A DNA stretch of 61,089 bases, filler included. It is 6 parts of 6 records of this genome, joined end to end, with 100 filler letters (N's around TTAATTAATTAA, not from the genome) between each part and the next. Parts side by side here need not be neighbours in the genome. Positions count along the whole stretch, not along the records: positions 29,284 to 45,144 come from SRR31147125_43295; 5 more parts are not named here. One strand, 5' to 3'. This document shows positions 18,700 through 44,477 of this stretch, piece after piece (position 1 is the stretch's first letter; each line of letters starts with the position of its first letter). The position numbers were made by a program, and so were the translations under genes. Below the pieces are notes generated by a model. The model was not told the origin of the DNA, did not search any database, and worked only from the letters and a program-made list of their open reading frames with translations.

Positions 18700-21600
18700 A
18701 GCGGGACTCTTTCCAAGACAGATGTTACGACAAACGCAGAAGGTACGGCCTTAACATTTTTAACCCTTGCGACCGATGTTGACACAAATAAAGTAAAAGC
18801 CAGCTCGGTAGGTCTGCAAGGCTCTCCCATTGAGTTTATTGCATTAGCAAACTCTGGTATTGCTAACAAAATAGTTTATGTGTCAGGAAATAATCAAACA
18901 GGAACTGTCCGATCCCCATTGTTAGATCCAATTGTAGTTAAAATATTGGACAATGTGGATCAGGCTGTAGCCAATCATAAGGTTATTTTTGAAGTAAAAA
19001 CCGGAGGTGGAAAAATAGAAGGCGAAACCACCAAAGAAGTGTTTACCGATCAAAATGGACTTGCTCAGGTAAGTTGGACACTAGGTGAAATACTCGCGAC
19101 AACTGAAGGCATTAATACGATAGAAGCCAGTGCTATAAACGGCAGCAGTGCTTTGACCAATTCACCTGTTGAATTTACTGCAACTGCTGTTGTACCGAAA
19201 ATTGAAATAGTTTCCGGCAATGGTCAATCTGGTGCTGCAGGAGAACCTTTAAATGAGCCATTTGTTGTAAGGGTTACGGATAGGAACGGTAATCCTTATG
19301 TTGGTCAAAAAGTGACTTTTTCAATAACAAAAGGACAGGGACATATCGATGGTAACAGCTCTGTAGATGTTGTGACCGGAGAAGATGGAAGAGCATCCAT
19401 TGTTCTGACACTGGGTCCGGCTGATGGTCAATTAAATGAAGTGATTGTATCCTCTCACGTCGATGGTGTGTCTTTGGATGGATCCACTCTTATTTTTCAA
19501 GCTTCATCTGGCGAAGTTACAGATTTAGTTAGTGTATCAGGAAATAACCAATCCGGAAGCGCGGGTCAGCCTTTACCTGATCCCTTTAAGGTTCGGGTTT
19601 TGAATAATTTTAATATGCCTGTCAAGAATTATTCTGTTACTTTTAGTGTGACTGAGGGAGGCGGTACTATTGCTGAGACGACGGAAAAGGTCGTACAAAC
19701 AGATGATAATGGATACGCTTCAGCCATTTTGACACTGGGCACAACACCTGGTCAAACCAACAAAGTGAGCGTGCGTGCTGTCAATGGAGGAACTGATTTA
19801 ACAGGATCTCCACTCGAGTTTCAGGCCGTCTCTTCAAGAATCAAAGAAATAAAAATGGTAGCAGGAGACAGTCAGGTTGGAACGGTGGGCATGCCATTAT
19901 CCATGCCATTTAAAGTAAAAGTGATGGATGAACTTGGAAAGAGTCCAAATGGATTTCCTGTGACATTTGTCGTTACAGACGGGAACGGACAGTTAGATGG
20001 CGAAACAACGAGGACAATCCTTACAGATGAAAATGGCCATGCTGAGACAATATTAATCCTCGGGGCGCTTCCCGGATCCAATAATAATATCGTAACAGCC
20101 AGTGCGGTTTTTGATGGTAGTCAAGTCACTGGATCCCCCATTACATTTCATGCTTCAGGCATTATGGGACCAGCAACCGAGCTTGTTTATGTGTCTGGGG
20201 ATAGTCAGAAAGGTGTGGTTGGCAGTAATCTTGTTGAGCCTCTAAAGGTTAAAGTTATAGATAACGCTGGTAATCCATTAAATGATCATCCGGTTACATT
20301 CATCATTACCGGCGGTGAAGGCCGTTTGGACGGTTCAAGTGAGACTTTAATAACAAAGAATACAAATTCAGATGGATTTGCAGAGGTGATTTGGACGCTG
20401 GGTGTAGAAAATGGCAATACCCGAAACAGCGTTGAAGCAAGTTCCTCTTACAATGATGCCCCCCTGGAAGGATCTCCGATAACATTTACAGCGACTGTAT
20501 TGCCAAGTACGGCTGCCGAAATAGAATTAATTTCAGGCGACTCACAGGAAGGCCTTGCCGGCAGAACATTAGTTAATCCGTTTAAAGTAAGAGTGACGGA
20601 TACAAATGGAAACGGTACCTCAGGCCATCCTGTCGACTTTAGAATAATTGCCGGTGGTGGCACACTGGATGGACCGGTTGACACTGCTGAAACTGTTGTG
20701 ACGGATGAGAACGGATATGCGGAGGTTCTATTAACTCTGGGTAAACAATCCGGAATAGACAATATAGTGCATGCTTCTTCTGTGAATGGTCCGGAGAATT
20801 TGACAGGTTCGCCAATTATCTTTACGGCAAACAGCAAAACCGGTGCAGTGGATCCTGTTGTATCTACAGTCGTTTGTACTCCTGGATCCTTATCTGTTGA
20901 TGAGTCCATTGGAGGACAAATAACAGTAACATTGACAGATTCGTATGGAAATCCTGTTCAAAATAAAATTGTCATGTTAACATCCTCAGGTGACGATGTC
21001 CTGGAACAACCCTCAAATCCAACAGACGCCAATGGTCAGGCTTTTGGCTCTGTGAAATCGACAAAAGCAGGACTCAGGCTAATCAGTGCGCGAAATGTGA
21101 CAGATGCACTTGAATTGGCGAATCCCGGACAAATAGTTTTCATGCCATTGTCTGCCTCGGACCTTGTTCAAGTATCAGGTGGAAACCAGGAAGGCAATAT
21201 TGGCACGGCTTTGCTGGATCCACTTACAGCCCGTGTTACAGATAAATATGGTAATGCTATTGCCAACTTTTTAATTAACTTTAATGTGCTTGGTGGTGGC
21301 GGTACTATATTTGAAAATCAACCCATGTATACTGATTCCAGTGGTGAGGCTTCAGCTACCTTTATATTGGGACGGGATACAGGGGTTAATAATTTGGCTG
21401 AGGCGAGAGTGGAAGGACTGAATAATTCATCAGTATTATTCATGGCCAGCGTCACAGATAATTCTGCGCAGAAATTATCAAGAGTTTCTGGCAACGGTCA
21501 GAATGGAAGTGCCGGATTTGTTTTGCCAGAGCCATTTATTGTGAAAGTGACAGATGAAAATAACAAGCCCATTTGGAATTTTCCGGTAGAGTTTGAGGTG

Positions 21601-23532
21601 ACTGAAGGAAATGGTCTGTTTTACGGAGAATCTTCCAAAATAATAAGAACTGATTACGCTGGTTATGCATCGGCACAGTTTGTACTGGCCAAGGAATTAG
21701 GAACAAATCGTGCAACTGTCCTGGCTAACGGATTAAGTGGATCACCGGTTTCTTTTGCAGCCCAGGGTACAGTTGGTGAAGCTGCCAGATTACAGTATGT
21801 TCAGGGTGATAGTCAAACTGTTGAGGTGAACTCGCAGTTACCATTAGCTTTGAAAGTACAGGTGACAGATTTTTATGGTAATGGCATTGGCAGTTATCCC
21901 GTGCTTTTTAATATTATTGAGGGAGAAGCTCAATTCCTGGAGAATCAACAACAAATCACAGATACAAATGGATTCGCCTCAATCTCAATGCAACTGGGTC
22001 ATACAGCAGGTCCGGTTATTGTCGAAGCTCAGGCACTGGATCTTCTCGATTCAAGCGTTCAATTTTCTCTGGAAGCCACTGCTTCTATAGCTGCATCATT
22101 GGCTCTCTATTCCGGTTCGGATCAAAAAGGTACAATTAACCGGGCATTGCCATTCCCGTTAAAAGTTATTGTTAAAGATATCCATAATAATCCGGTATCG
22201 AATGTCGTCGTGAATTGGAACATCACAAATGGTGGTGGAAGTCTGAGCGGCGGTACAATGACAACAACGAATGAAAAGGGAATTGCTGAAAATAAGCTTA
22301 TTTTAGGGTCTGATGTGGGTGAAAATACGGTTTATGCTTTTAATACAGGTTTTCAGGTATCGCCTGTGCTGTTCTCAGCCCAGGGCGTTGAAAACAAATT
22401 TCCGTTGTTTAGTCAAGTTGGAGATAAAGTCATAAATGAGAATCAGACACTGATTTTTAATCTGAACGCCACAGATGATGATGGTGATCCTGTTACTTAT
22501 GGTGTGCTGGATCTACCGGAGGGCGCTGACTTTGATTCTCTTGGAAACCGTCAATTCAGTTGGACACCAGATTTTAGCCAGTCTGGAGAATATGAGGTTA
22601 CATTTTTAGCTTTTGATAACAGAGATGGGGTGGGTGCTGAAATTGTGACTATTACAGTAAACAATATGAATCATGCACCACAGATCGACAGCTACAGTCC
22701 TTCGGAGAATTACCTGGCGATTTATCAGAGTGAAAATGATGTTATTCATTTCAGTGTTTCCGCTTCTGATATTGATAACGAACCAATCAGTTATTACTGG
22801 ACCCAAACAACTCTTGGAGAAACACTGGTTGTATCGAAAAAGAATTATTTTGACTTGACAGCTGTGGAAAATCTGAACGCACCTCATATAATTACAGTAC
22901 ATGTGACAGACGGTACTGATACTGCTGAGAAAACGTGGAATATTGATATTATGACTCTTGTGGAACTTGTCAGCTTTACAGCAGAGGTTGATCAATATAA
23001 AGGTATCAAGCTTGAATGGCAGACCAGTTCTGAAACGAATAATATCGGATTTAACGTTTACAAAAGTCAGAGTAGAGAAGGTATTTATGAAAAGATTAAT
23101 GATGTGCTTGTGCCCAGCAGGGATAATATGATGTACTATTATTACGATAACAGCGTTCAATCCGGGCAAACATACTATTATAAATTGGAAGATGTCAGTA
23201 AATATGGTGTTACTGTTCAACATGAACCAATCAAAATAGAAATGAGTGTTCCCAGAGAATATCAATTGCTGCAAAATTATCCGAATCCTTTTAATCCATC
23301 TACGACGATTAATTTTCAGATTCCGGTAACAGCACAGGTATCTTTAAAGATATATAATATAAATGGTCAGCAAGTCAGAACGTTAATAGAAAACGTGAGA
23401 CCAGCTGGTTATTATGCAAGTGTTTGGGATGGTAGAAATAACAACGGCATTAAGGTGCCATCAGGTATCTATTTCTATTCACTTCAGACCGAGGGTTTTA
23501 CTCAAACAAAACGAATGCTGTTGATAAAATAA
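18700..23532 (+). CDS. Giant surface protein with tandem Big_1/invasin-like Ig repeats and C-terminal FlgD/T9SS-type sorting domain (5'-truncated)
   Basis: Frame is open from the contig start. About ten ~100-110 aa repeats start with SG(N/D)xQxG and contain V.V.D..GNP, TD..G.A, LTLG and GSP..F.A. These are followed by cadherin/He_PIG-like domains, VELVSFTA, and LLQNYPNPFNPSTTI...WDGRN...SGIYFY...TKRMLLIK. Confidence 0.9.
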   Translation, partial: SGTLSKTDVTTNAEGTALTFLTLATDVDTNKVKASSVGLQGSPIEFIALANSGIANKIVYVSGNNQTGTVRSPLLDPIVVKILDNVDQAVANHKVIFEVKTGGGKIEGETTKEVFTDQNGLAQVSWTLGEILATTEGINTIEASAINGSSALTNSPVEFTATAVVPKIEIVSGNGQSGAAGEPLNEPFVVRVTDRNGNPYVGQKVTFSITKGQGHIDGNSSVDVVTGEDGRASIVLTLGPADGQLNEVIVSSHVDGVSLDGSTLIFQASSGEVTDLVSVSGNNQSGSAGQPLPDPFKVRVLNNFNMPVKNYSVTFSVTEGGGTIAETTEKVVQTDDNGYASAILTLGTTPGQTNKVSVRAVNGGTDLTGSPLEFQAVSSRIKEIKMVAGDSQVGTVGMPLSMPFKVKVMDELGKSPNGFPVTFVVTDGNGQLDGETTRTILTDENGHAETILILGALPGSNNNIVTASAVFDGSQVTGSPITFHASGIMGPATELVYVSGDSQKGVVGSNLVEPLKVKVIDNAGNPLNDHPVTFIITGGEGRLDGSSETLITKNTNSDGFAEVIWTLGVENGNTRNSVEASSSYNDAPLEGSPITFTATVLPSTAAEIELISGDSQEGLAGRTLVNPFKVRVTDTNGNGTSGHPVDFRIIAGGGTLDGPVDTAETVVTDENGYAEVLLTLGKQSGIDNIVHASSVNGPENLTGSPIIFTANSKTGAVDPVVSTVVCTPGSLSVDESIGGQITVTLTDSYGNPVQNKIVMLTSSGDDVLEQPSNPTDANGQAFGSVKSTKAGLRLISARNVTDALELANPGQIVFMPLSASDLVQVSGGNQEGNIGTALLDPLTARVTDKYGNAIANFLINFNVLGGGGTIFENQPMYTDSSGEASATFILGRDTGVNNLAEARVEGLNNSSVLFMASVTDNSAQKLSRVSGNGQNGSAGFVLPEPFIVKVTDENNKPIWNFPVEFEVTEGNGLFYGESSKIIRTDYAGYASAQFVLAKELGTNRATVLANGLSGSPVSFAAQGTVGEAARLQYVQGDSQTVEVNSQLPLALKVQVTDFYGNGIGSYPVLFNIIEGEAQFLENQQQITDTNGFASISMQLGHTAGPVIVEAQALDLLDSSVQFSLEATASIAASLALYSGSDQKGTINRALPFPLKVIVKDIHNNPVSNVVVNWNITNGGGSLSGGTMTTTNEKGIAENKLILGSDVGENTVYAFNTGFQVSPVLFSAQGVENKFPLFSQVGDKVINENQTLIFNLNATDDDGDPVTYGVLDLPEGADFDSLGNRQFSWTPDFSQSGEYEVTFLAFDNRDGVGAEIVTITVNNMNHAPQIDSYSPSENYLAIYQSENDVIHFSVSASDIDNEPISYYWTQTTLGETLVVSKKNYFDLTAVENLNAPHIITVHVTDGTDTAEKTWNIDIMTLVELVSFTAEVDQYKGIKLEWQTSSETNNIGFNVYKSQSREGIYEKINDVLVPSRDNMMYYYYDNSVQSGQTYYYKLEDVSKYGVTVQHEPIKIEMSVPREYQLLQNYPNPFNPSTTINFQIPVTAQVSLKIYNINGQQVRTLIENVRPAGYYASVWDGRNNNGIKVPSGIYFYSLQTEGFTQTKRMLLIK

Positions 23533-29498: not shown

Positions 29499-30742
29499 TC
29501 AGATTTTAGAGGGGGATAAAAGGGACAAAAAAAACTGTTCCAAAATCAATCTTGCAGAGGCATTACTTTGAAGCTTTTTTTCTGTTCCGTGAAGGGTTTC
29601 AAGAAGGGTTAAAGGGGCATTGTTCGGCAATGTTTGGGCAAGGTAAAATAGAGCCTTTTTAAAATCCATGTTCACAAGAAAACGGTCTAAAGATGTGGTC
29701 ACATTTTCTTGAAGGTGCGGCGGTGCCGACTCATTTTCTGATGTTCTACTTCCATGAAAAGCCGTTTTTTTACTATGCTGCCATGAGGCAATCAATGCCA
29801 TGTCTCGAAACCAAAGTTTGATGATAAGAAAAGAATCCTCCAACAGATGCGGCTCTTTACTGAGTTTTTCCGCCATCAGCATGGCTGAATGTTCGGCAAT
29901 TCCTTGGGCCGGTTTCAATAGCTCGAAAAGGCGAGATAGAATCCAATGTCGTCTTTTGATCCAATCTGCTGGAACATCTGATGCAGCGGATTGTTTTAAG
30001 TGCATTCTTTTTTCAGAATGAGGCACGGAACTTTTAGCTGATTGCGTGCTTTTCCACCCCCGTTCTCTTCCCTTGATTTTTCCTCAGCAAGATTTAACAA
30101 CATCATTGCTTTTTTAAATTCACCAGAAGATGTTTTTGCAATAATGGTGGCCTGTTCCTGAGAGATCGTGCAAAGCGCCATCAGACGTTGAACAATTTCG
30201 GAAGTGTGAATCGGTTTGAAGCGAATATGGCGACATCGGGAGATAATGGTTGGCAGCAGTAAGTTCAGATTCGGTGCGAGTAATATGAAAAAAGTTCTTT
30301 CCGGGGGCTCTTCCAGCCGTTTTAATAACGCATTGGCTGCTTCAAGATTCATGGTGTGCGCATCCGAAATAAAAACCATTCGAATGGATGCTTCATGGGG
30401 TTTGACTGAAATTTGATTGGAAAGTTCCCGGATTTGACTGATTTTGATGGAATTTTTTTCCGGTGAAAGTGGGATCATGTCAGGATGCATGGATGCCTCG
30501 ATTTTCATGCAGGACCGACACTGATCACAGGGACAGTCATGTGTTGAGTCGGTTCGGTTGAGGCAGTTCAAACTTTTGAAAAGGTGGATGGCCGCCCTAT
30601 GACGTCCTGATCCTTGAGATCCGGTGAATAGTAGAGCATTGGGGATCTTGGCGGTTTGTATGAGAAGGGCCAGCTCCTCATTTGAATCCGCAGACTTCAT
30701 CAATGATACCGCAGACGGTACAGTGGCAACCTCCTCATCCAT
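29499..30742 (-). CDS. holB: DNA polymerase III delta' subunit, split by apparent indel near 30030-30080
   Basis: PNALLFTG, C..C zinc module (CDQCRSC), HPDM, AANALLKRLEEPP, LLPTIISRC; the C-terminal part (NASARLILE) is in ORF 29499-30026. Confidence 0.9.
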
Positions 30743-31727: not shown

Positions 31728-34326
31728 TTAATCAAACTCTCCGATGCCGTGGAGATTGACCATGAATGAAAAAGCACGGTCATTAGGTGTGTCGGAATAA
31801 GCCATCCTGAATGACCAGCATGGTCTGGTGACATGGATGCCGGCCATGGATTCTATGGTTTCACTGGTCAATAGATTTTGCTCATAGACGGCAAATGCGC
31901 TCACATGGGTAGAAAGTTTTGTCTGCAAGCGGGTGTATAAAGACTCGGATGTGGATCGATCATAGCCGTAACGTGCGTAGAGAGAGTCTCCTCTTGGATT
32001 TCTCAAGGAAAGGTTGGTATTGCATGAGTTGAATCGATTGTCGTAGGGAGACCACTTTAAATCACTTTTCAATGTAAAAAAAGAGAGAGGGCTTAACTCG
32101 ATTTCTGCGGAGATGTCTGAAAATCGGCGAGATGCTCTGCTGTCTGTGTTTTCATTCAAAATGGTTGAATCGGTAAGAAAATCCAACGAGCTACCGTCAT
32201 CCGGGTCAAGCGCATAGCTTTGACTCAATTCTATCCATGCAAACTCCCGATAGATCGGCGTGGGGGATACGAGGGCTTCGTTGAGTGTGTCGGTGCCGCT
32301 GATGGCGGTAGTTTTGGCGTTGACATGCTGTGGCAAGGATGAAGAAACGCCAACGCTCTTTGTCGTATGATTATCCGGGGCATAAGAAGGATAATTCAAT
32401 GGAGAGTCCGCTGCTTGGGAATTAAAGTTGCTATTGAGACTGTTTTTTTTGGGGGGAGCGGCAGTTTTTGGCTTATTAAGGTTGTTTTTCTGGAAGTAAG
32501 ACGGCTTGTCAGTGTCCAGGTGACATGATTTCGATTTTCAATTAAATCAAGGCTGTCAAATGTGGGAAACTTGTTTTGATCGACATCCGGGATGTATTCG
32601 TATTCAAGTTTGGGAATTATTTCGTGTTTTATTTTTTCTGCAAAACGATTGTTGGGATTGAAGATTTTTGAAAGGGTTGTCGAGAGAGCGACATTGATAT
32701 CCGCCATCTCTCTATGGCTGAAATAATTATCAAAACCGTCGTTGTTGGGGGATAAATCGGTCGTGCCGCCTACTACGTCATTATAGGTTTCATTGGGATC
32801 AGCATACCATAGGGTTTGTCTGTATCCGATTGAGGGTTCCAGAAAAAAAGCGTTGTTTCGGATGGGTAGGGAAACGGATGAATGGATGTCACTTCTATGG
32901 CCGGTGGTGAGTGTTGAAGAAATCTGTGTTAAGTCAGTCTCATTCAATTCATCGGCAAGATCTTTCGAAGTGTTTTTTCTGTAGAAATATGCATATTCTG
33001 CATCTAAATCAAAATAGAAAGGATAGTTGCCGATTTTTTGTTTGACGGTATTGAGTTCAATATTGGGAAGACGTTGGAGGGTGGTATCTTGGGTCTTTGC
33101 GATATCTTCGACATCAATGAATCCATTTTCAGCATCTTCGGCAGAAAATTGCCTGGCAAAAACATTGTCGAACCAAATGAGACCCATGTTCAATGTTGTG
33201 GCGGACCACATCCGGTTGACGTTGAAACTATTTTTTCGGATGGTGTCATCATACTCATCGATGCCCCTTCCAAAGTCCTCTTTAAACGTCGTGCGGGTTT
33301 GTGTGTAGCCGGTGTAACCGCTTTTGAATTCATGAAGATAGTCGGCATCACTGACGTAGTCGATATCCAGTGTCGACGACCAGTCTTCATTCAGTTGATG
33401 ATTCCCTTTCATTCTGAGCCAGTAGCGGTCGTGATTGAACCGTTGCCGGTTGGTAACCACCTTAAAGTCGGAGGTGGCTGAGGTTCCGTCATATATTTCT
33501 CGATCATGCAGATAATCATATTGCATCGTCCCTTTGCTTTCATCATCCCATATATATCGAAACTCCCCCCGACTTTGGCTCCCCGCTTGTGCATGTAGTG
33601 ACTGTAGATGGTGGCGTCCATGTGGCCGGAAAGAGCTAAAAAAAGCGGCTGTTCGATCTCAAATCCTTTTCTGTCCGAAGATGAAATCCTGGGTGTCAAG
33701 AGTCCGGTTTGTCTTTTGTTTTTTACGGGAAATGCCACTATAGGCGCATAAAGTGCGGGAATGTTACGGGCCCAGAATGTGGCATTTTTAGCCACGCCAT
33801 ACCCTTCGATGGTGACACGAATGTCTTTGGCGGAAACTTTCCAATCCGGCGTATCTCCGGGGCAAGAGGTGAGAGATGCCTGATCTGCTTCATAGGTCAG
33901 CTTTCCGGTTTTTCGGATGGTGTCTCCATGGATGTAGAAATTGTTTTCTTCAATAAAGACAACGCCGTTATAAAGCGTACCGGTTTCCTTTTCAAGATTG
34001 AAGTGTAATGCATCGCATTGAATGAGGTCCTTGCCGGATTTCAGCAAAACATTTCCGGATGCTTCCACATCTCGAGTGGCGTTTGAATATTCCACATAGT
34101 CGGCTTGAAGACGGATGTTTCCACCACTGACTACGACACCGTTTTCCGCAATATATAGTTCTCTTTCATTGTCGTAACTTACTTTGACTGCTGAGATGTG
34201 CCACGAATCAATCGGGCTGACGGCGGGGGACGCAAACACGGAGCTCATGGACAAAAAAAGGAATGATAGACGGATCACTGCTCGGCTTGCAAAAGCAAAG
34301 ACAGATTGGGATTTTAAGGATTGCAT
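31728..34326 (-). CDS. lptD: LPS-assembly protein LptD, split into three ORFs by apparent indels
   Basis: OstA-like N-terminus (WHISAVKVSYD, LQADYV, TSCPGDTPDW, KRQTGLLTP); barrel motifs (DIDYVSDADY, TTLQRLP, KIKHEIIP); C-terminal CWSF...FSFMVNLHGIG. Confidence 0.88.
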
Positions 34327-34596
34327 TTGAGCTTTTCCATTGATATGAATCGTTTCGGAGTGTTTATTGGGCTTGAAGATTGATTTTGATGTGTAATTTT
34401 ATTCTGAGGATTATTGGCGTGATATTACGCATTGCACCAAATTTTGATGCGTATGAGATAAGTTGCTGTATAAAGCCATTTTGTGGATTATTTGTCAAGC
34501 AATGAAACTCCTGAAAACAATGCGGAAAAATTTTCATGTTTGATAGGGTTAACAGGTAAAATTGAGCGAAAGCCCATGTTATTTTGAAAGGGATCT

Positions 34597-35363
34597 ATGT
34601 TTATTACGTTGGAAGGTGTGGAAGGATCGGGTAAGACAACTCAGATGGGGGCAATCGCTCAGTTTTTAGAAGAAAATGGGCATGATGTCCTTTTAACACG
34701 TGAGCCGGGGGCTACACATACCGGTCAAAAAATTCGATCCATTCTTTTGGACCCTGACAATGACTCCATCTCGCCACTTTGTGAGTTGTTGCTCTATGGC
34801 GCAGATCGGGCCCAGCATTTAGATGAAGTGGTTCTGCCGGCGCTACGAAGTGGAAGAACCGTACTGTGTGATCGGTTTGCCGATGCGACGACCGCGTATC
34901 AAGGGGTTGCCCGAGGTCTTGATATGGCTTTGATAGACAATATCCATACCATTGTGGCCGGTCGAAAAAATGAGCGCGTTTCACTAAATGCCAATGGCTC
35001 AAATGCGGAAGGACATGGAAACTCAGTTAATTTCAATGCCACGGATTTTGATGGACGATTTTCCGGAGTTTCGGAATCGAATGTCACTGTTTGTAAGCCC
35101 GATGTGACGATTCTATTTGACATAGATCCCCTTCTAGGACTCCAAAGGACCTTTGACGCCATCGATCAAGGGAAAGGGCTCACAATGAGTCTCGTTTTGA
35201 GCAAGAGGCATTGGCATTTCATAAACGAGTTCGTCATGGCTACTTAGAAATAGCCAAGCAAGACCCTGAGCGTTTTATTATAATAGACGCATCGTTACCG
35301 AAACAATCCGTTTTTGAGGAAGTTGTTTCAAAGCTCGGAAAATTTGTTTTGCACATGACATGA
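34597..35363 (+). CDS. tmk: Thymidylate kinase with internal ~43-aa insertion, apparent indel near 35170
   Basis: FITLEGVEGSGKTTQ, TREPG, ELLLYGADRAQH, LCDRFADATTAYQG, KPDVTILFD. The shifted frame gives SRFEQEALAFHKRVRHGYLEIA...IIDAS...* at 35363. Confidence 0.92.
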
Positions 35364-35391
35364 AACGCATTTTGTAAATGTAGGAATATAA

Positions 35392-37831
35392 ATGAGTTAT
35401 TCAATATTAGATGCCATCGGTAATACACCACTGGTTGAGATTGAACATCTTAACCCAAATTCGGAAGTAAGAATTCTTGCCAAGCTGGAGTATCTTAACC
35501 CCGGGGGGTCGATAAAGGATCGGGCCGCACTCTCCATGATTGAACAGGCAGAGAGACAAGGAGAGTTGACAAAAGACAAAATTGTCGTCGAGGCGACCAG
35601 TGGGAATACCGGCATTGGCCTTGCCATGATTTGCTCAGTGAAGGGGTATCGACTATTACTTGCCATGTCCGAGTCCGCCAGTGAAGAGCGAAAGCGGATT
35701 CTCAGAGCCAGGGGGGCGGAAATACTGCTGACCCCTGGCCATAAAGGGTCGGATGGCGCGATTGAAGAAGCTTATCGGTTGGGACGGGAGAACCCCGATA
35801 AATATTTTTTGACGGATCAGTACAACAATGAAGCCAACTGGCTCGCCCATTACAACACCACAGCCGTGGAAATTTGGGAGCAAACCCACGGCACCGTCAA
35901 TATGTTGGTCGCCACCCTTGGGACCAGTGGCACCTTGATGGGGCTCTCCAGAAGACTGAAAGAGTTCAACCCCGAAATCCGAATCATTGGAGCCGAACCG
36001 TTTTTGGGGCACGCTATTCAGGGGCTGAAAAACATGAAAGAGTCTTACCAGCCTGATATCTTCGATAAAAAGCGCCTTGATGAAAAGGTGAATATTGAAG
36101 ATGACCTTGCCTTTGAGACGGCACGGCGACTGGCAAAAGAAGAAGGGCTATTTGTGGGGATGAGTAGTGGCGCTGCCATGGCCGTTGCACTGCAACAGGC
36201 GGAAAAGTTAGACAAAGGAACGATTGTCGTTATTTTACCGGACAGTGGTGAACGTTATCTGACCACCTCTCTTTTTACCGTCAAAGACTCCATTCAGTTG
36301 GATCTCTACAACGCAGTAGAGAAAAAAACATCCGATTTGAGCCCCTGGAGCAAGGAAAAGTCTCTGTATATACATGCGGGCCTACCGTAGATAAATCATT
36401 GCATGTCGGGAAATATCGCAGGTTTGTCTCGGCGGATCTGCTCTGTAGGTACTTGGAATATCGGAATCTGAAGGTCAATCATGTGGTGAATATCACTGAT
36501 TTGGATGACAACACCATTCGGGGATCGGAGCAGGCTGGACAATCCCTGAAAGAATTCACCAGTGCGAACCTGGATCGTTTTAAATCCGAGTTGCAACAAC
36601 TCGATATCCGGGAAGCCCAATCGTATCCCAGAGTGAGTGAGCATGTCGAAGAGATGGTCCGTTTGGCGTCCACCTTGGCGGACAAGGGCGTTGCTTATGA
36701 GAAGCTCAACTCTCTTTACTTTAATTTATCCGCAGTTTCTTCCTATGGCTCTCTTTCAGGGGTGGATATCGATAAAATAAAGTTGGGAGCTACGGTGGAT
36801 CTGGATGACTATGAAAAGGACAATCCCAGAGACTTTACACTCCTCAAACGGGTGGGACTGTCCGAATTGAAGCGAGGATTGTGCGTGAATACCCGATGGG
36901 GGAATGTGCGCCCCTCTCTTCACCTTCAATGCGCTGCACTGTCAACGACTTACTTGGGAGCTCAGTTCGATATCCATACCGGTAGTCGCGAGCTGGTGTT
37001 TCCCCATCATGAAAACGAGGTGGCCATTTCACTTGCAGCCACCGGAAAAGAGCCGGCAAGATATTGGATGCATTGTGATGCCGTTCATTATGACGGAACT
37101 CTTGGGGCGGAATCTCTGGATGCACTGACATTATCCGAACTGTTGGAGATGGGGTGGTCAAGTCGGGCAGTTCGATTCTGGTTGCTTTCAACACATTACA
37201 GAAAGTCCCTGATTTTATCAAAAAAGGCGCTGGAAGATGCCGATCGTTCCCTGATAAAGCTGGATAGGTGCATTGCCGCCTTAATGGCGGTTGTGGATTT
37301 CGGTGATAAAAAGCCGAAAATTGAATTGGATAAACCAGATGAAATCAGTGAAGATGGGGCGGTTTTGACAAGTGGGGGCGTTTCAACAAAAAAAGCGGAA
37401 ACAGAAGATAAGAACGCCTCGACCGGGGGGAACTTGATTCGACTGTCTCTACGACAAGTGACCCTTCCCTATCGGATCTAGATCAGTTGCTTTATGATTT
37501 GAAACAAGGTTTTAGCACGGCAATGGATGATGATTTCAAAGTATCCGCTCTTTTTTCATCACTATTTCGATCTGTGAGAGAGATTAACCGAATGATAGGT
37601 GCAACGAAGATCGACTCAAATGGGGCCAAGGTTATTCTTGACTATTTTAAAGAGATCGATTCGGTTTTAAGAGTTTTTGATTTCGGGGCTTCACAAACGC
37701 CATCTATTGAGGCGCAGGATCTTTTGGATAGACGGATGAAAGCCAGAAGGGAAAAGAACTGGGAAGAAGCAGACAAACTTAGGAATGCGCTTATTGATAT
37801 GGGCGTTGAAATTCATGATGAAAAAGTATGA
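35392..37831 (+). CDS. Cysteine synthase (CysK/CysM, PLP) fused to a cysteinyl-tRNA-synthetase-like region; ~813 aa after correcting two homopolymer indels
   Basis: N-part: IGNTPLV, NPGGSIKDR, EATSGNTG, GTSGT, GMSSGA, PDSGERYL. Adding one A at 36322-28 gives ...LDLYNAVEKKNIRFEPLEQGKVSVYTCGPTV..LHVG..., then NITDLDD, FPHHENE, STHYRKSL. Adding one G at 37425-30 joins AMDDDF and the ARREKNWEEADKLRNAL anticodon-binding region. Confidence 0.85.
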
Positions 37832-37935
37832 CTGTGTTTGTTGGTGCTGAGTAATTTGGGTAGCACAGTATATAAGGTTTTGTAAATATTAACAATTTTA
37901 TTTGGTATCGATAGTTGTAAAAATGGTGTAAAAAT

Positions 37936-39012
37936 ATGCATATACTTACGTCTCCACTTTTTTTCCCTTTCACTGTATTGACTGGAACGGATGCGCTCAT
38001 TCTCTCGTTACTTTTTCAGAAAATTGATTGGTTGAGCACGGAATCTTCCGCAGAGAGGTCGATATCAAAACTTAATTTGAATGAAGTCGATACGGACCAT
38101 CAGGAAGGGGAAGAGCGGTTTTTTCCATTGGTTATTCCTGAAAAGCTATTAGGTAAAATATCTGCCTCACTTGCCGGGTATAAAGAGTGGGCCACCTTAA
38201 ACAAAGGTGCGGGAAAGGGATATTTAAAATCAACAGTACGAGAAAATCCCTACTTTACCAGCGATACGGATATCTCAGCAATTCAGTATCAAATAGTAAA
38301 AAATATAAAAAATCATTCGGATGTTTTGCAAAATAATGACCTATCAGGTGTGGGGCAGGATGGGCTGGATGCAAATTTTGATGAACTTCCACAGACACTT
38401 CAAAAATCACTGCTCTTTCTTCGATTGGCGCACCAATCGGATTTGGAGCAGGAACTATTGGATCACCAACTGGAGTTGATCAATGCTTCCGAAGCAGATC
38501 TGTTTTCCCAATTGAAGGGGCAGGCGGATTTGCCGGCTTATTCAAGTGGCGGATTTGCTTCCAAGGATAAAGGCGCGCTTATGACGGAAGAGCGTTTAAA
38601 TGCGTGGTCGGCAGTCATGAAACAGCAAAAAATGGACGGTTCAAATCCGCTACTGGTGACGACAAGCCCCGCCGTTGTTAATTTTTTAAACTCCGTCAGT
38701 GAAAAGAGTAAATTGATCCTTGACATCGATCCCATTAAAGTGCACAAAGAAACGTGTTCGCTTAAAGATCAATGGCAGGAAAATTTTTATAGAGCACTGG
38801 AAATCGCGATCCGGGGCGGTGAGTGGCAATTGGGAAGAGAAGTTGCTGCAGATGCCTGTTGTCAAACACAAGTGGATTTGAAGCTCTATCTTCTATCCGG
38901 TGAACATGTGCAAAGATTACTCCGGTTCTCTCAACCGGATGATCATGAAATTGAATTGACCCAGAGCAGCGGGGAGCAGATTCCCGTGCTTCTGGTTGAT
39001 GTAAAAAAATAA
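37936..39012 (+). CDS. Hypothetical protein
   Basis: 358-aa ORF, co-oriented with neighbours; no motif recognised. Confidence 0.7.
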   Translation: MHILTSPLFFPFTVLTGTDALILSLLFQKIDWLSTESSAERSISKLNLNEVDTDHQEGEERFFPLVIPEKLLGKISASLAGYKEWATLNKGAGKGYLKSTVRENPYFTSDTDISAIQYQIVKNIKNHSDVLQNNDLSGVGQDGLDANFDELPQTLQKSLLFLRLAHQSDLEQELLDHQLELINASEADLFSQLKGQADLPAYSSGGFASKDKGALMTEERLNAWSAVMKQQKMDGSNPLLVTTSPAVVNFLNSVSEKSKLILDIDPIKVHKETCSLKDQWQENFYRALEIAIRGGEWQLGREVAADACCQTQVDLKLYLLSGEHVQRLLRFSQPDDHEIELTQSSGEQIPVLLVDVKK

Positions 39013-41724: not shown

Positions 41725-44477
41725 ATGGCTAAAAAAAAATCAAAAAATACCACTTTAAAAAAAGAGCTGTTGGCCACACTGATGCTCTTTTTGGTGGTTT
41801 TGACCACTGTCAGTCTTATATCCTATTCTCCACAAGATCCTTCCTTTAATCATCAGGTGTTTTCATCCACCCAGATACATAATTTTTTCGGACTGTTAGG
41901 GGCTCATCTTGCCGGAATTCTGGTTGGAGCTTTGGGGGTGTCTGCTTTTGGGATTCCCATCCTGTTAGCGATTTGCTCCTATCTTTTTTTCAAGCAGCCA
42001 AAGTCGGCGGGTTTTATTGTGATTGTATCCGGTGGAAGCATTATCATGGTTTCCACCGCGTCATTTTTCACAATTCTGATTGAAACCTATGAGCTGTGGC
42101 AAACCGATTATGCATCCGGGGGGTGGTTTGGACGCACCATGGCTTCGTTTTTCTTAAAATACACCAATACACCTGGAACGGTAATCATTTTGATGTTCAT
42201 TTTATTTGTGGGAGTATTGGTGAGTACGGGGCTTTCTGCAATGGCGCTCATGAAAGCCATTAATAATGGTGTCGGCTCACTGTTTTCGTTTGTGAAAAAG
42301 CCGGCTCGTCGGTTTGCTAATATATTTTTAGGGATTGGGAGAGGCATCAGGGGAAGGGCTTTGGGACAAATGCCAGGTCTTTCAATTAAAAGCATTACTT
42401 GGAATAGGCAGGGATATTCTTCTAATGAAGGAGAATCTCTTCTGTTGAATGATGAGTCCACTGAAAGGGATATGTCGGCCGTCTCTGATTCCGGCCATTC
42501 GATTAAGCATTCTGCTGTTGGAGGGGCGGACAGGCTTATTTCACCGGTAGGGGAGTTTGAAGACGGCTCCGGGAGTTTTGAGAATGTTGCACAGGACTTT
42601 ACGAAAGCTCGGGAAAGGTCCGGGGGCATATTTAAAAATGTACTAAAAAAGACGAGAAAGAAGAGTTCCAATAATGAAACGTCGACATTGAATAACCTTC
42701 AACGAGGCAATTCTGCAATAATGAGCAGTAAAAAGGCAGAAAATGGCCCCGCAATTTTTGAATCGGATTTTGCTTCATTAAATGAAGGGGAATTTATTCT
42801 ACCCCCTTATCATTGCTGAATGACAAAGAAAAAGAAGCAGAAGGTCCCAATCTCGCATCGCTTCAAATGAAAGCGGAAATTCTTGAGGAAAAACTCAAGG
42901 ATTTCGGCGTCAAAGGTGAAATTGTAGATATCCTACCCGGACCCGTCATTACCACGTTTGAATATCGACCTGCCCCTGGTGTGAAAATCAGTAAAATTGT
43001 GAACCTCACCGATGACATCGCTTTAGCTTTGAGCGCTCTGAGTATTCGGATCAATGCGCCTATTCCCGGTAAAGATGTGGTCGGGGTGGAGATTCCAAAT
43101 GATGAAAGGGAAATTGTTATACTCAAAGAGATGTTGGCATCTGAAGCGTTTATCTCATCTTCTTCAAAACTTACCCTGGGGTTGGGAAAAGATATCCTGG
43201 GAAAACCCTTCTCTGCAAAAATGGATCGAATGCCTCATCTACTCATTGCAGGGGCTACCGGTACCGGTAAAAGTGTTGGTCTCAACTCCATGATCATCAG
43301 TTTACTTTATAAAGCAACGCCTGATGAGGTGAAATTTATCATGGTCGATCCGAAACGGATTGAGCTATCCGTGTATGACGACATTCCCCACTTGATTTCT
43401 CCAGTGGTGACGGACATGAAAAAAGCCACCAATGCCCTGTTTTGGGCGGTACGGGAAATGGAGAGGCGGTATGAACTTCTTGCTGAAAACGGGGTGAGAA
43501 ATCTCACGCAATATAACGCATTGATAGTGAAGAGACTCGAAGAGATTGAAAAACAGTACGGGCAATCCAAGGGACGGGAAGATAAAGTGACGAACCCTTC
43601 CTTTGATGGTGAAGAAACCGGAAAATCATTTCATAAAAATAAGAACAAGCGGGAAGAATCAATCCTGGAAGAAGACCGAGAGCGGAGTGATAGTGATATC
43701 CCTTCCACTGAGAATGACTTCTCTGCTAATGCCAATGAAAGTGATGAAGTAACGATTCCCTTTGAAGGTGAAACAACAACTGATGAGGGAGAGTCTGATG
43801 ACGAGCCCGGTGTGATGGAAACGCTCGAAAAATTGCCCTACATTGTTGTCATTGTAGATGAGTTTGCCGACTTAATGATGGTTGCTTCAAAAGATGTGGA
43901 ATCGGCTTTGATTCGATTGGCACAAATGGCAAGGGCTGCCGGCATTCACTTGGTTTTGGCAACACAACGTCCTTCGGTCGATGTGTTGACCGGCATCATA
44001 AAGGCAAATTTTCCCACACGACTTTCTTTTCAGGTGTCATCAAGAACCGATTCAAGAACAATCCTTGACACAAACGGATCAGAGCGGTTGCTGGGAAATG
44101 GAGATATGTTGTTTTTACCCCCTGGGACAGGACGATTACAGAGAATCCAGGGGGCATACATCTCGGAAGAGGAAATTGCCCGGGTGACATCATTCCTGAA
44201 AAAACAGCAACAGCCCCAATATGTGGAAGATGTCACGGAAAAAGTGGACGAGGATACATCCGGTGGAGAAGAAGAGGAATATGATGAAAAATATGACGAA
44301 GCCGTGGCCATTGTCACCAGAACGCGTCAAGCCTCGATATCAAGCGTGCAGCGCCATTTGCGAATCGGATATAATCGCGCTGCCAGAATCATTGAGACCA
44401 TGGAACGGGAAGGGCTCGTTGGTCCCCAAGATGGCTCTAAACCAAGAGAGGTGCTTGTAAAAAGTTATGACGATTGA
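41725..44477 (+). CDS. ftsK: DNA translocase FtsK, split by apparent indel in C run near 42802
   Basis: 4TM N-terminus (SYSPQDPSF, NFFGLLGAHLA); motor domain PHLLIAGATGTGKS, VDPKRIEL, VDEFADLMM, LATQRPSVDV; gamma domain LRIGYNRAARIIE. Confidence 0.95.

Follow-up and report, generated by a model that had tools for sequence, protein, structure and literature searches.

What a cysteine synthase gains from carrying a tRNA synthetase that seems to have lost the means of charging tRNA is the question raised by a gene of the window analysed here, i.e. of a stretch of 61,089 nucleotides joined from six parts, one of which, SRR31147125_43295, contains the gene. Its product combines an N-terminal cysteine synthase dependent on pyridoxal 5′-phosphate (PLP) with a C-terminal module resembling cysteinyl-tRNA synthetase (CysRS) (Table 1). 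The proposal to which we give most weight, with belief and doubt evenly matched, is that of a non-charging module with tRNA(Cys) and cysteine as its ligands, whose coupling to the synthase would be of the GCN2 or HisZ kind. The dead synthetase module would bind tRNA(Cys) via its anticodon and would probably also hold a cysteine thiolate on zinc, belonging either to free cysteine or to the cysteinyl end of Cys-tRNA. In this way the activity or the placement of the synthase would depend on the state of the tRNA(Cys) supply, much as the HisRS-like domain works in GCN2 and HisZ works on HisG. For a module of this sort joined to a cysteine-producing enzyme, such a tie would be the most economical use.

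The CysRS-like half was compared in an alignment of 118 family members with the CysRS of Escherichia coli, whose residue numbering is used for this half throughout, five canonical Desulfobacterales CysRS and 101 other canonical representatives. KMSKS is absent across the family, the positions of K266, M267 and S268 being gaps in 117 of the 118 members, and the alignment of the window protein with the solved CysRS 8qhp_A breaks at the very stretch that stands in place of this loop. The HIGH site is variable: position 37 is occupied by H (44), D (34), N (31) or A (3) in 112 of 118 members, and position 40 by Q (55), E (31) or H (10) among the 118. PGWHIEC and GGxD are replaced by PSLHLQC and TGSRE in the subtype represented by 68 members, a second subtype (PSWHIQC/TSSRE/DGKKV) comprises 26, and G226, G227 and D229 are altered in the family. 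On the cysS model TIGR00435, with its cut-off at 340 bits, the full-length members P0002 and P0023 score 308.0 and 308.6 bits, and the window pieces 266 and 43.6 bits. With the HIGH site free of constraint and the KMSKS loop missing, the C-terminal ~510 residues form a CysRS paralog to which the class I mechanism of adenylation is closed and which can probably no longer make the aminoacyl-adenylate. Among the features by which a cysteine--tRNA ligase is recognized, HIGH, KMSKS and a score over the curated cut-off are lacking, and the zinc ligands and anticodon residues are present.

What the module has kept is equally consistent over the family. C28, G29, T68, C209 and H234 are retained in 117 of 118 members and E238 in 107, all of them being found in the window copy; we take C28, C209, H234 and E238 to be zinc ligands, and the other kept pocket positions to be cysteine contacts, as in the E. 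coli enzyme. At the opposite end of the module are R427, W432, D436 and R439, which contact the GCA anticodon in structure 1U0B (PMC13449415). Of these, R427, D436 and R439 are found in 118 of 118 members, and position 432 is W in 104, F in 13 and Y in one. It is this invariance of the anticodon-contact residues that favours a role for tRNA(Cys). Of the 89 positions conserved in the 107 canonical CysRS the family keeps 58; the lost ones cluster at the ATP/adenylate pocket, together with a few positions of the connective peptide (CP) domain, and the C-terminal anticodon domain keeps five of its six, as counted with approximate domain limits. All this agrees with the first-pass annotation, which from the letters alone had read HIGH as HVGK, PGWHIEC as PSLHLQC, GGxDL as GSREL and the KMSKS loop as replaced, with zinc-ligand positions and anticodon-binding helices kept: each of these states is read in the window, and the retained ones recur in the 118-member alignment.

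The retained positions belong to a sequence that is actively maintained. The ratio of nonsynonymous to synonymous substitution rates (dN/dS) is 0.06–0.11 for the CysRS-like half and 0.03–0.07 for the CysM half in five of five pairs of close relatives, values that place the former under strong purifying selection. Averaged over the pairs among five genomes, identity is 65% in the CysRS-like half, compared with 75% in the canonical CysRS and 81% in the synthase half. AlphaFold2 models each half of homolog P0023 as well folded (mean predicted local distance difference test, pLDDT, 84.7), whereas pLDDT of the linker is below 50 and the predicted template modelling score is 0.60. The pattern of lost and kept positions corresponds to that of pseudo-synthetases of the HisZ/GCN2 type, in which catalytic motifs appear lost and ligand- and tRNA-binding residues stay under selection.

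The synthase to which this module is attached is, judged by its motifs and indels, a PLP-dependent beta-replacement enzyme, probably of CysM rather than CysK type, extending over the N-terminal ~290 residues. The window piece passes the cut-off of the cysKM model TIGR01136 (368.6 bits against 344.15), as do P0002 and P0023 (364.8 and 370.2 bits), and reaches 361.4 bits on the cysM model TIGR01138 versus a cut-off of 394.2. Relative to CysK, a 15-residue deletion and a 3-residue insertion are common to the synthase half and E. coli CysM; the inserted loop, which in CysM enzymes presumably influences whether larger sulfur donors or O-phosphoserine are used, reads KN in the former and RR in the latter. 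SIKDR, TSGNTG, GTSGT and SSGAA are present in the window and each is conserved in at least 90% of 120 family members. The synthase half looks fully active, in keeping with the initial impression of an intact enzyme taken from GGSIKDR, TSGNTG and GTSGT, and the preserved carboxylate-binding TSGNTG loop fits a free amino acid as substrate rather than a tRNA-esterified one.

The fusion is widespread. When longer relatives of the middle piece were sought, 3072 matches were obtained, and in 120 of the best 120 of these both PF00291 and PF01406 are present, within single open reading frames (ORFs) of 758–861 residues. The closest of the matches listed shares 78% identity over the middle piece, another is named ‘CysS3 [Desulfamplus magnetovallimortis]’, and the database names that fusions bear among them are ‘cysteine--tRNA ligase’ or ‘cysteine synthase’, which accords with the remark in the first-pass annotation that such Desulfobacterales proteins are annotated simply as cysS. 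The scan of one genome per species yielded 546 stretches encoding a relative, the best 80 being all Desulfobacterales-type records. In an even sample of 151 genomes from the order to which genome G003 belongs, 137 carry the fusion, 133 of them near full length (E ≤1e-200) and four split or cut by a contig end; the remaining 14 gave weaker matches only (best E 1e-61 to 1e-103), and in the seven of these that were listed the match was confined to the synthase half. Across the phylum the full-length fusion occurs in 160 of 401 sampled genomes. The Desulfobacterales, a large sulfate-reducing order, have the fusion among their core genes.

In these organisms the fusion is accompanied by ordinary genes of both kinds. 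Co-occurrence was followed in genomes of relatives, the first five of which include two complete chromosomes and three cultured strains. The canonical cysS (439–480 bits) stands beside the fusion in 10 of 10 genomes checked; in the first five it scores 457–480 bits on PF01406, within an ORF of 482–514 residues, against 229–265 bits for the fusion, and the CysRS-like half shares 34–39% identity with the canonical CysRS of the same genome. A separate cysK-type gene (407–440 bits, with the long CysK loop) is likewise present in five of five genomes, and the cysE model matches in all five at 159.5–166.7 bits, below its cut-off of 210.65, the match adjoining cysK in G001 and G005. The fusion is a paralog, a third player beside ordinary cysS and ordinary cysK in the same genomes. 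Two of the objections foreseen by the first-pass annotation are answered by these data: relatives do not depend on the fusion as their only cysS, and the window copy is not a decaying exception, for 118 of 118 aligned members lack KMSKS under the low dN/dS given above.

The order in which fusion and loss of motifs occurred can be approached from the tree of the CysRS catalytic domain, built after a HMMER search of 1.84 billion representatives. The window’s family lies within a 32-leaf clade (support 0.99), inside which motif states are graded. At the base of the fusion clade branches an unfused member, P0130 (468 residues, cluster of 58; HIGL/PGWHIEC/KMSRS); unfused CysRS-like proteins with DLGL and a KVGR-type loop are also found there. 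Then there are fusions with HLGN or HIGL plus KMSRS (P0125 and P0273, the latter from a metagenome-assembled genome (MAG) named ‘Deltaproteobacteria bacterium’ and scoring 418.7 bits on TIGR00435, over its cut-off), half-degenerate fusions (P0113, P0043) and a crown group that includes the window copy. The side branch of P0124, P0126, P0272 and P0173 has lost zinc ligands (C209S or C209A, T68N) and kept the four anticodon residues. Among six phylum-wide fusions that were read, HLGN or HLGV, PGWHIEC and KMSRS are all retained in four, and the other two are degenerate. Five of five phylum genomes checked, those of the four motif-keeping fusions included, have a canonical cysS as well. Because the more distant fusions keep HLGN/KMSRS, fusion appears to have come first, the ATP site having been given up later and more than once, and the original role of the fusion was perhaps the channelling of cysteine to charging. 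The putative anticodon-reading surface is the constant element throughout this series. Outside it stands P0138 (768 residues, from a Nanoarchaeota MAG), a fusion of PALP and CysRS with intact HIGN/PGWHLEC/KMSKS and 517 bits on TIGR00435; since it belongs to a different clade of the CysRS tree, it is seemingly an independent fusion, synthase and CysRS having been joined at least twice.

Several observations weigh against the proposal that a non-charging module reads tRNA(Cys) and cysteine on behalf of the synthase. W205, present in 107 of 107 canonical enzymes, is replaced by L in 89 of 118 members, and because of this replacement cysteine binding by the module may be altered. CP-domain positions near the acceptor end are changed (R168T, W184L, W194 deleted, and a conserved 4-residue insertion), so the module may hold the tRNA 3′ end in another way or no longer hold it. 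The former ATP pocket is lined by new invariant polar residues, Q208, R228 and E229, which hint at a new ligand. In the P0023 model the orientation of one half to the other is not confidently predicted, and no allosteric or channelling interface is visible; the predicted-complex scores for the CysM half with the CysRS-like half (0.28 and 0.19, the mark being 0.32) are counted neither way. The gene resides among housekeeping genes (tmk, lptD, rnj, ftsK), and its context therefore provides no clue to sulfur metabolism.

The alternative that survives best is a cysteine-only feedback sensor, strictly HisZ-like, in which free cysteine bound at the zinc would inhibit the fused synthase and tRNA would take no part. 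In its favour, 117 of 118 members retain the zinc-ligand and cysteine-contact positions, and a precedent exists in HisZ, a synthetase paralog without adenylation which mediates histidine feedback on HisG (PMC9437257). The side branch described above speaks against it, having dispensed with zinc ligands and retained the four anticodon residues, and so does the replacement of W205. Moreover, the whole anticodon domain, which HisZ is not known to have, is kept, its four contact residues being invariant in 118 of 118 members (with the aromatic substitutions at W432 already given). We regard this sensor as unlikely.

Next comes tRNA-linked sulfur chemistry, in which the module would hold an aminoacyl-tRNA(Cys) and the CysM half would perform PLP-dependent beta-replacement on the tRNA-bound residue; a persulfide or seleno form could, for example, be made from Cys-tRNA, or Cys-tRNA itself from a phosphoseryl or seryl precursor. 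Invariant anticodon residues would be expected here too, CysM-type enzymes carry out beta-replacement with varied nucleophiles, and the existence of independent PALP–CysRS fusions, such as P0138 with its intact HIGN/KMSKS, suggests that physical coupling of the two activities was selected repeatedly. On the other hand, SepRS (TIGR00470) is over its cut-off in none of the five genomes, where weak matches of 23–29 bits are probably PheRS, so that no known source of phosphoseryl-tRNA(Cys) is at hand; the synthase keeps the TSGNTG loop for a free alpha-carboxylate; and the P0023 model places the halves in no confident contact. This chemistry is accordingly rated improbable, and there is a slim chance that sulfate reducers obtain cysteinyl, persulfidated or seleno-cysteinyl tRNA by such a tRNA-templated route, independently of SepRS.

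It is very doubtful that the protein still charges tRNA(Cys) through unorthodox ATP-binding residues, channelling fresh cysteine onto the tRNA. Such an activity is suggested by the distant fusions that keep HLGN, PGWHIEC and KMSRS (L108–L111, P0125, P0273), P0273 even exceeding the TIGR00435 cut-off, and because of them channelling may have been the original reason for the fusion. In the window’s own family, both class I signature motifs are lost with the HIGH site unconstrained, G226, G227 and D229 are changed, members remain below the cysS cut-off (308 versus 340 bits), and a canonical cysS is present alongside in 10 of 10 genomes.

That two real frameshifts make the gene a pseudogene in this organism is hardly credible, even though the window sequence as given does contain two frame changes. 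Of the words sampled from the fusion-gene stretch, 0.97 are present in a public run, X1, and a contig assembled from it (17,870 nucleotides, depth 93) spans positions 34500–38000 with 0 substitutions and exactly three indels, namely the missing base at each of the two homopolymer runs and a third one that mends tmk. As the two assemblies differ by homopolymer bases only, both frame breaks in the fusion gene are homopolymer errors of the window assembly, and the true gene is one ORF of (2440+2)/3 = 814 codons, i.e. 813 residues and a stop. The caveat is that X1 may come from the same sample as the window, and it therefore counts as an independent assembly and not as an independent organism. A second X1 contig (3220 nucleotides, depth 102) matches only 35617–35649, 36151–36185 and 36795–36828, at 90–95% identity, and probably carries the homologue of this gene from a further organism of that sample. 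Other window genes are split in the same way, lptD into three pieces and tmk, holB and ftsK into two each; relatives carry these housekeeping genes as single ORFs (in locus L012, lptD of 747 and tmk of 213 residues). The window assembly thus seems to under-call homopolymers throughout, and apparent pseudogenes in it need checking against reads. Two indels apart, the pieces fit the family consensus throughout, and the X1 assembly and the homologs together leave little room for a real pseudogene. The initial reading of three pieces as one protein of ~813 residues, repaired by one base per run, is thereby borne out, the re-assembled reads and single-ORF homologs showing one gene rather than two; LDLYN does lie in the synthase frame ahead of the first shift, as had been noticed at the outset.

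Table 1. Location of the fusion gene, its parts and motifs, and other features in the window (positions count along the whole stretch; residue numbers of the CysRS-like half follow E. coli CysRS).
Feature	Position	Strand	Evidence or remark
Whole fusion gene	35392–37831	+	single ORF of ~813 residues after adding one base in each of two homopolymer runs
ORF piece 1	35392–36390	+	frame 1; PALP and cysKM TIGR01136
ORF piece 2	36399–37481	+	frame 3, open back to 36273; tRNA-synt_1e PF01406
ORF piece 3	37487–37831	+	frame 2; DALR_2 and CysS_C
CysM-type PLP cysteine synthase, predicted (O-acetylserine/O-phosphoserine sulfhydrylase fold, PALP)	35392–36267	+	PF00291 245.7 bits; TIGR01136 368.6 bits
GGSIKDR (PLP lysine motif)	35503–35523	+	synthase half
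TSGNTG loop	35596–35613	+	synthase half
GTSGT loop	35920–35934	+	synthase half
Inter-domain linker	36268–36297	+	AlphaFold2 model of homolog P0023, residues 286–298 with pLDDT <50
CysRS-like catalytic fold lacking HIGH and KMSKS (Rossmann, CP and stem-contact parts)	36298–37241	+	PF01406 254.2 bits
LDLYN	36298–36312	+	in synthase frame, upstream of first frame change
A7 run, first apparent frameshift	36322–36328	+	assembly under-call; X1 contig has A put in behind 36321
CGPT	36375–36386	+	CysRS-like half
HVGK (HIGH site)	36402–36413	+	CysRS-like half
NITD	36489–36500	+	CysRS-like half
PSLHLQC (PGWHIEC site)	36912–36932	+	CysRS-like half
TGSRE(L) (GGxD site)	36978–36992	+	CysRS-like half
PHHENE	37002–37019	+	CysRS-like half
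Stretch replacing the KMSKS loop, YDGTLGAESLDA	37089–37124	+	E. coli K266/M267/S268 align to gaps in 117/118 members
G6 run, second apparent frameshift	37425–37430	+	assembly under-call; X1 contig carries an additional G after 37424
CysRS anticodon-binding end (DALR_2 helices and CysS_C domain)	37511–37831	+	DALR_2 27.4 bits, CysS_C 32 bits
Four anticodon-contact residues	within 37739–37783	+	R427, W432, D436, R439
tmk (thymidylate kinase), directly upstream	34597–35363	+	Thymidylate_kin on both pieces; adjacent ORFs in different frames, split by homopolymer error (X1: G behind 35169)
u358, conserved downstream gene	37936–39012	+	adjoins fusion in 50/80 loci
holB, split	29499–30742		adjacent ORFs in different frames
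lptD, split	31728–34326		adjacent ORFs in different frames
ftsK, split	41725–44477		adjacent ORFs in different frames
Longest ORF of the window	18880–23532	+	1550 residues

The neighbourhood of the fusion gene follows a conserved order, with holB, a NusG-like gene and lptD on one strand and tmk, the fusion, u358, a 2x[4Fe-4S] ferredoxin gene, the RNase J gene and ftsK on the other. In many loci (L012 in the case of tmk) the stop of tmk overlaps the start of the fusion, and the stop of the fusion the start of u358, by 4 nucleotides, and these overlaps point to one operon of tmk, fusion and u358. The product of u358 could be a possible partner of the fusion. It has ~320–370 residues (L012:10286–11389) with the motifs FFPFTH, PYFTSDT and VTTSPAV, and its model (pLDDT 74) displays an alpha/beta core with a long helical hairpin. 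No Pfam family matched u358 at E up to 10, the fold searches gave no match (best E 0.26 with Foldseek on PDB and best Z 3.7 with VIA-align wide), and the best value of an atlas search, 0.87, was below lead level. In four of the five relatives’ genomes (G001–G004) metG is located ~8 kb from the fusion gene. The whole window was also scanned for RNA genes, and neither a tRNA gene nor an Rfam family is present in it.

With respect to known proteins the fusion may be placed as follows. Its module is like canonical CysRS (TIGR00435) in fold, domain order and the residues of the zinc/cysteine site and anticodon contact, and differs from it by the absence of KMSKS, HIGH, PGWHIEC and GGxD, by the 4-residue CP insertion and by the N-terminal synthase. 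The synthase half has the motifs and indels of CysM, but remains below the cysM cut-off, reads KN for RR and bears a tail of 510 residues. HisZ is a separate class II subunit and is not known to have an anticodon domain, whereas the module considered here is fused, of class I, and keeps that domain; GCN2 is a eukaryotic kinase whose dead HisRS-like domain is thought to read uncharged tRNA and binds many tRNAs. The fusion resembles GCN2 in having a dead synthetase domain fused to an enzyme, and differs in that its anticodon residues suggest a single tRNA species and its output would be biosynthetic. With HisZ it has in common that a synthetase paralog without adenylation is tied to the biosynthetic enzyme of the same amino acid (PMC9437257).

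Two other CysRS paralogs were compared as candidate identities. CysRS* of the Desulfobacterales (Mukai et al., 2017), a CysRS paralog from the same order, is described as devoid of the anticodon domain and charging selC* tRNA(Cys) (PMC5389517, PMC7609411). The fusion differs by the presence of DALR_2 and CysS_C and by its synthase half, and its anticodon-binding domain rules out that it is CysRS*. MshC (TIGR03447), an ATP-dependent ligase that is not joined to a cysteine synthase, is ruled out as well, the score being 154.1 bits versus a cut-off of 485.1. The 2022 review of synthetase paralogs names, in the portion available, only CysRS* and MshC for CysRS (PMC9437257). Full-text literature searches found no paper on a cysteine synthase–CysRS fusion, with the reservation that the supplements of PMC5389517 and PMC5388404 could list the paralog. 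A pseudo-CysRS fused to a cysteine synthase thus appears to be an undescribed kind of protein, whose architecture is present in databases under misleading names.

For the Desulfobacterales this means that aminoacyl-tRNA synthetase counts and automatic annotation overstate the number of cysS genes in these genomes. Non-charging synthetase paralogs are a small and instructive class, so far including HisZ, GCN2, YadB, MshC and CysRS*, to which a third paralog of CysRS is added here, and the series from intact through half-degenerate to fully degenerate fusions offers a natural experiment on the passage from enzyme to pseudoenzyme. If it is true that the module reads tRNA(Cys), the fusion would constitute a direct, protein-level link in bacteria from the charging state of a tRNA to the synthesis of its amino acid.

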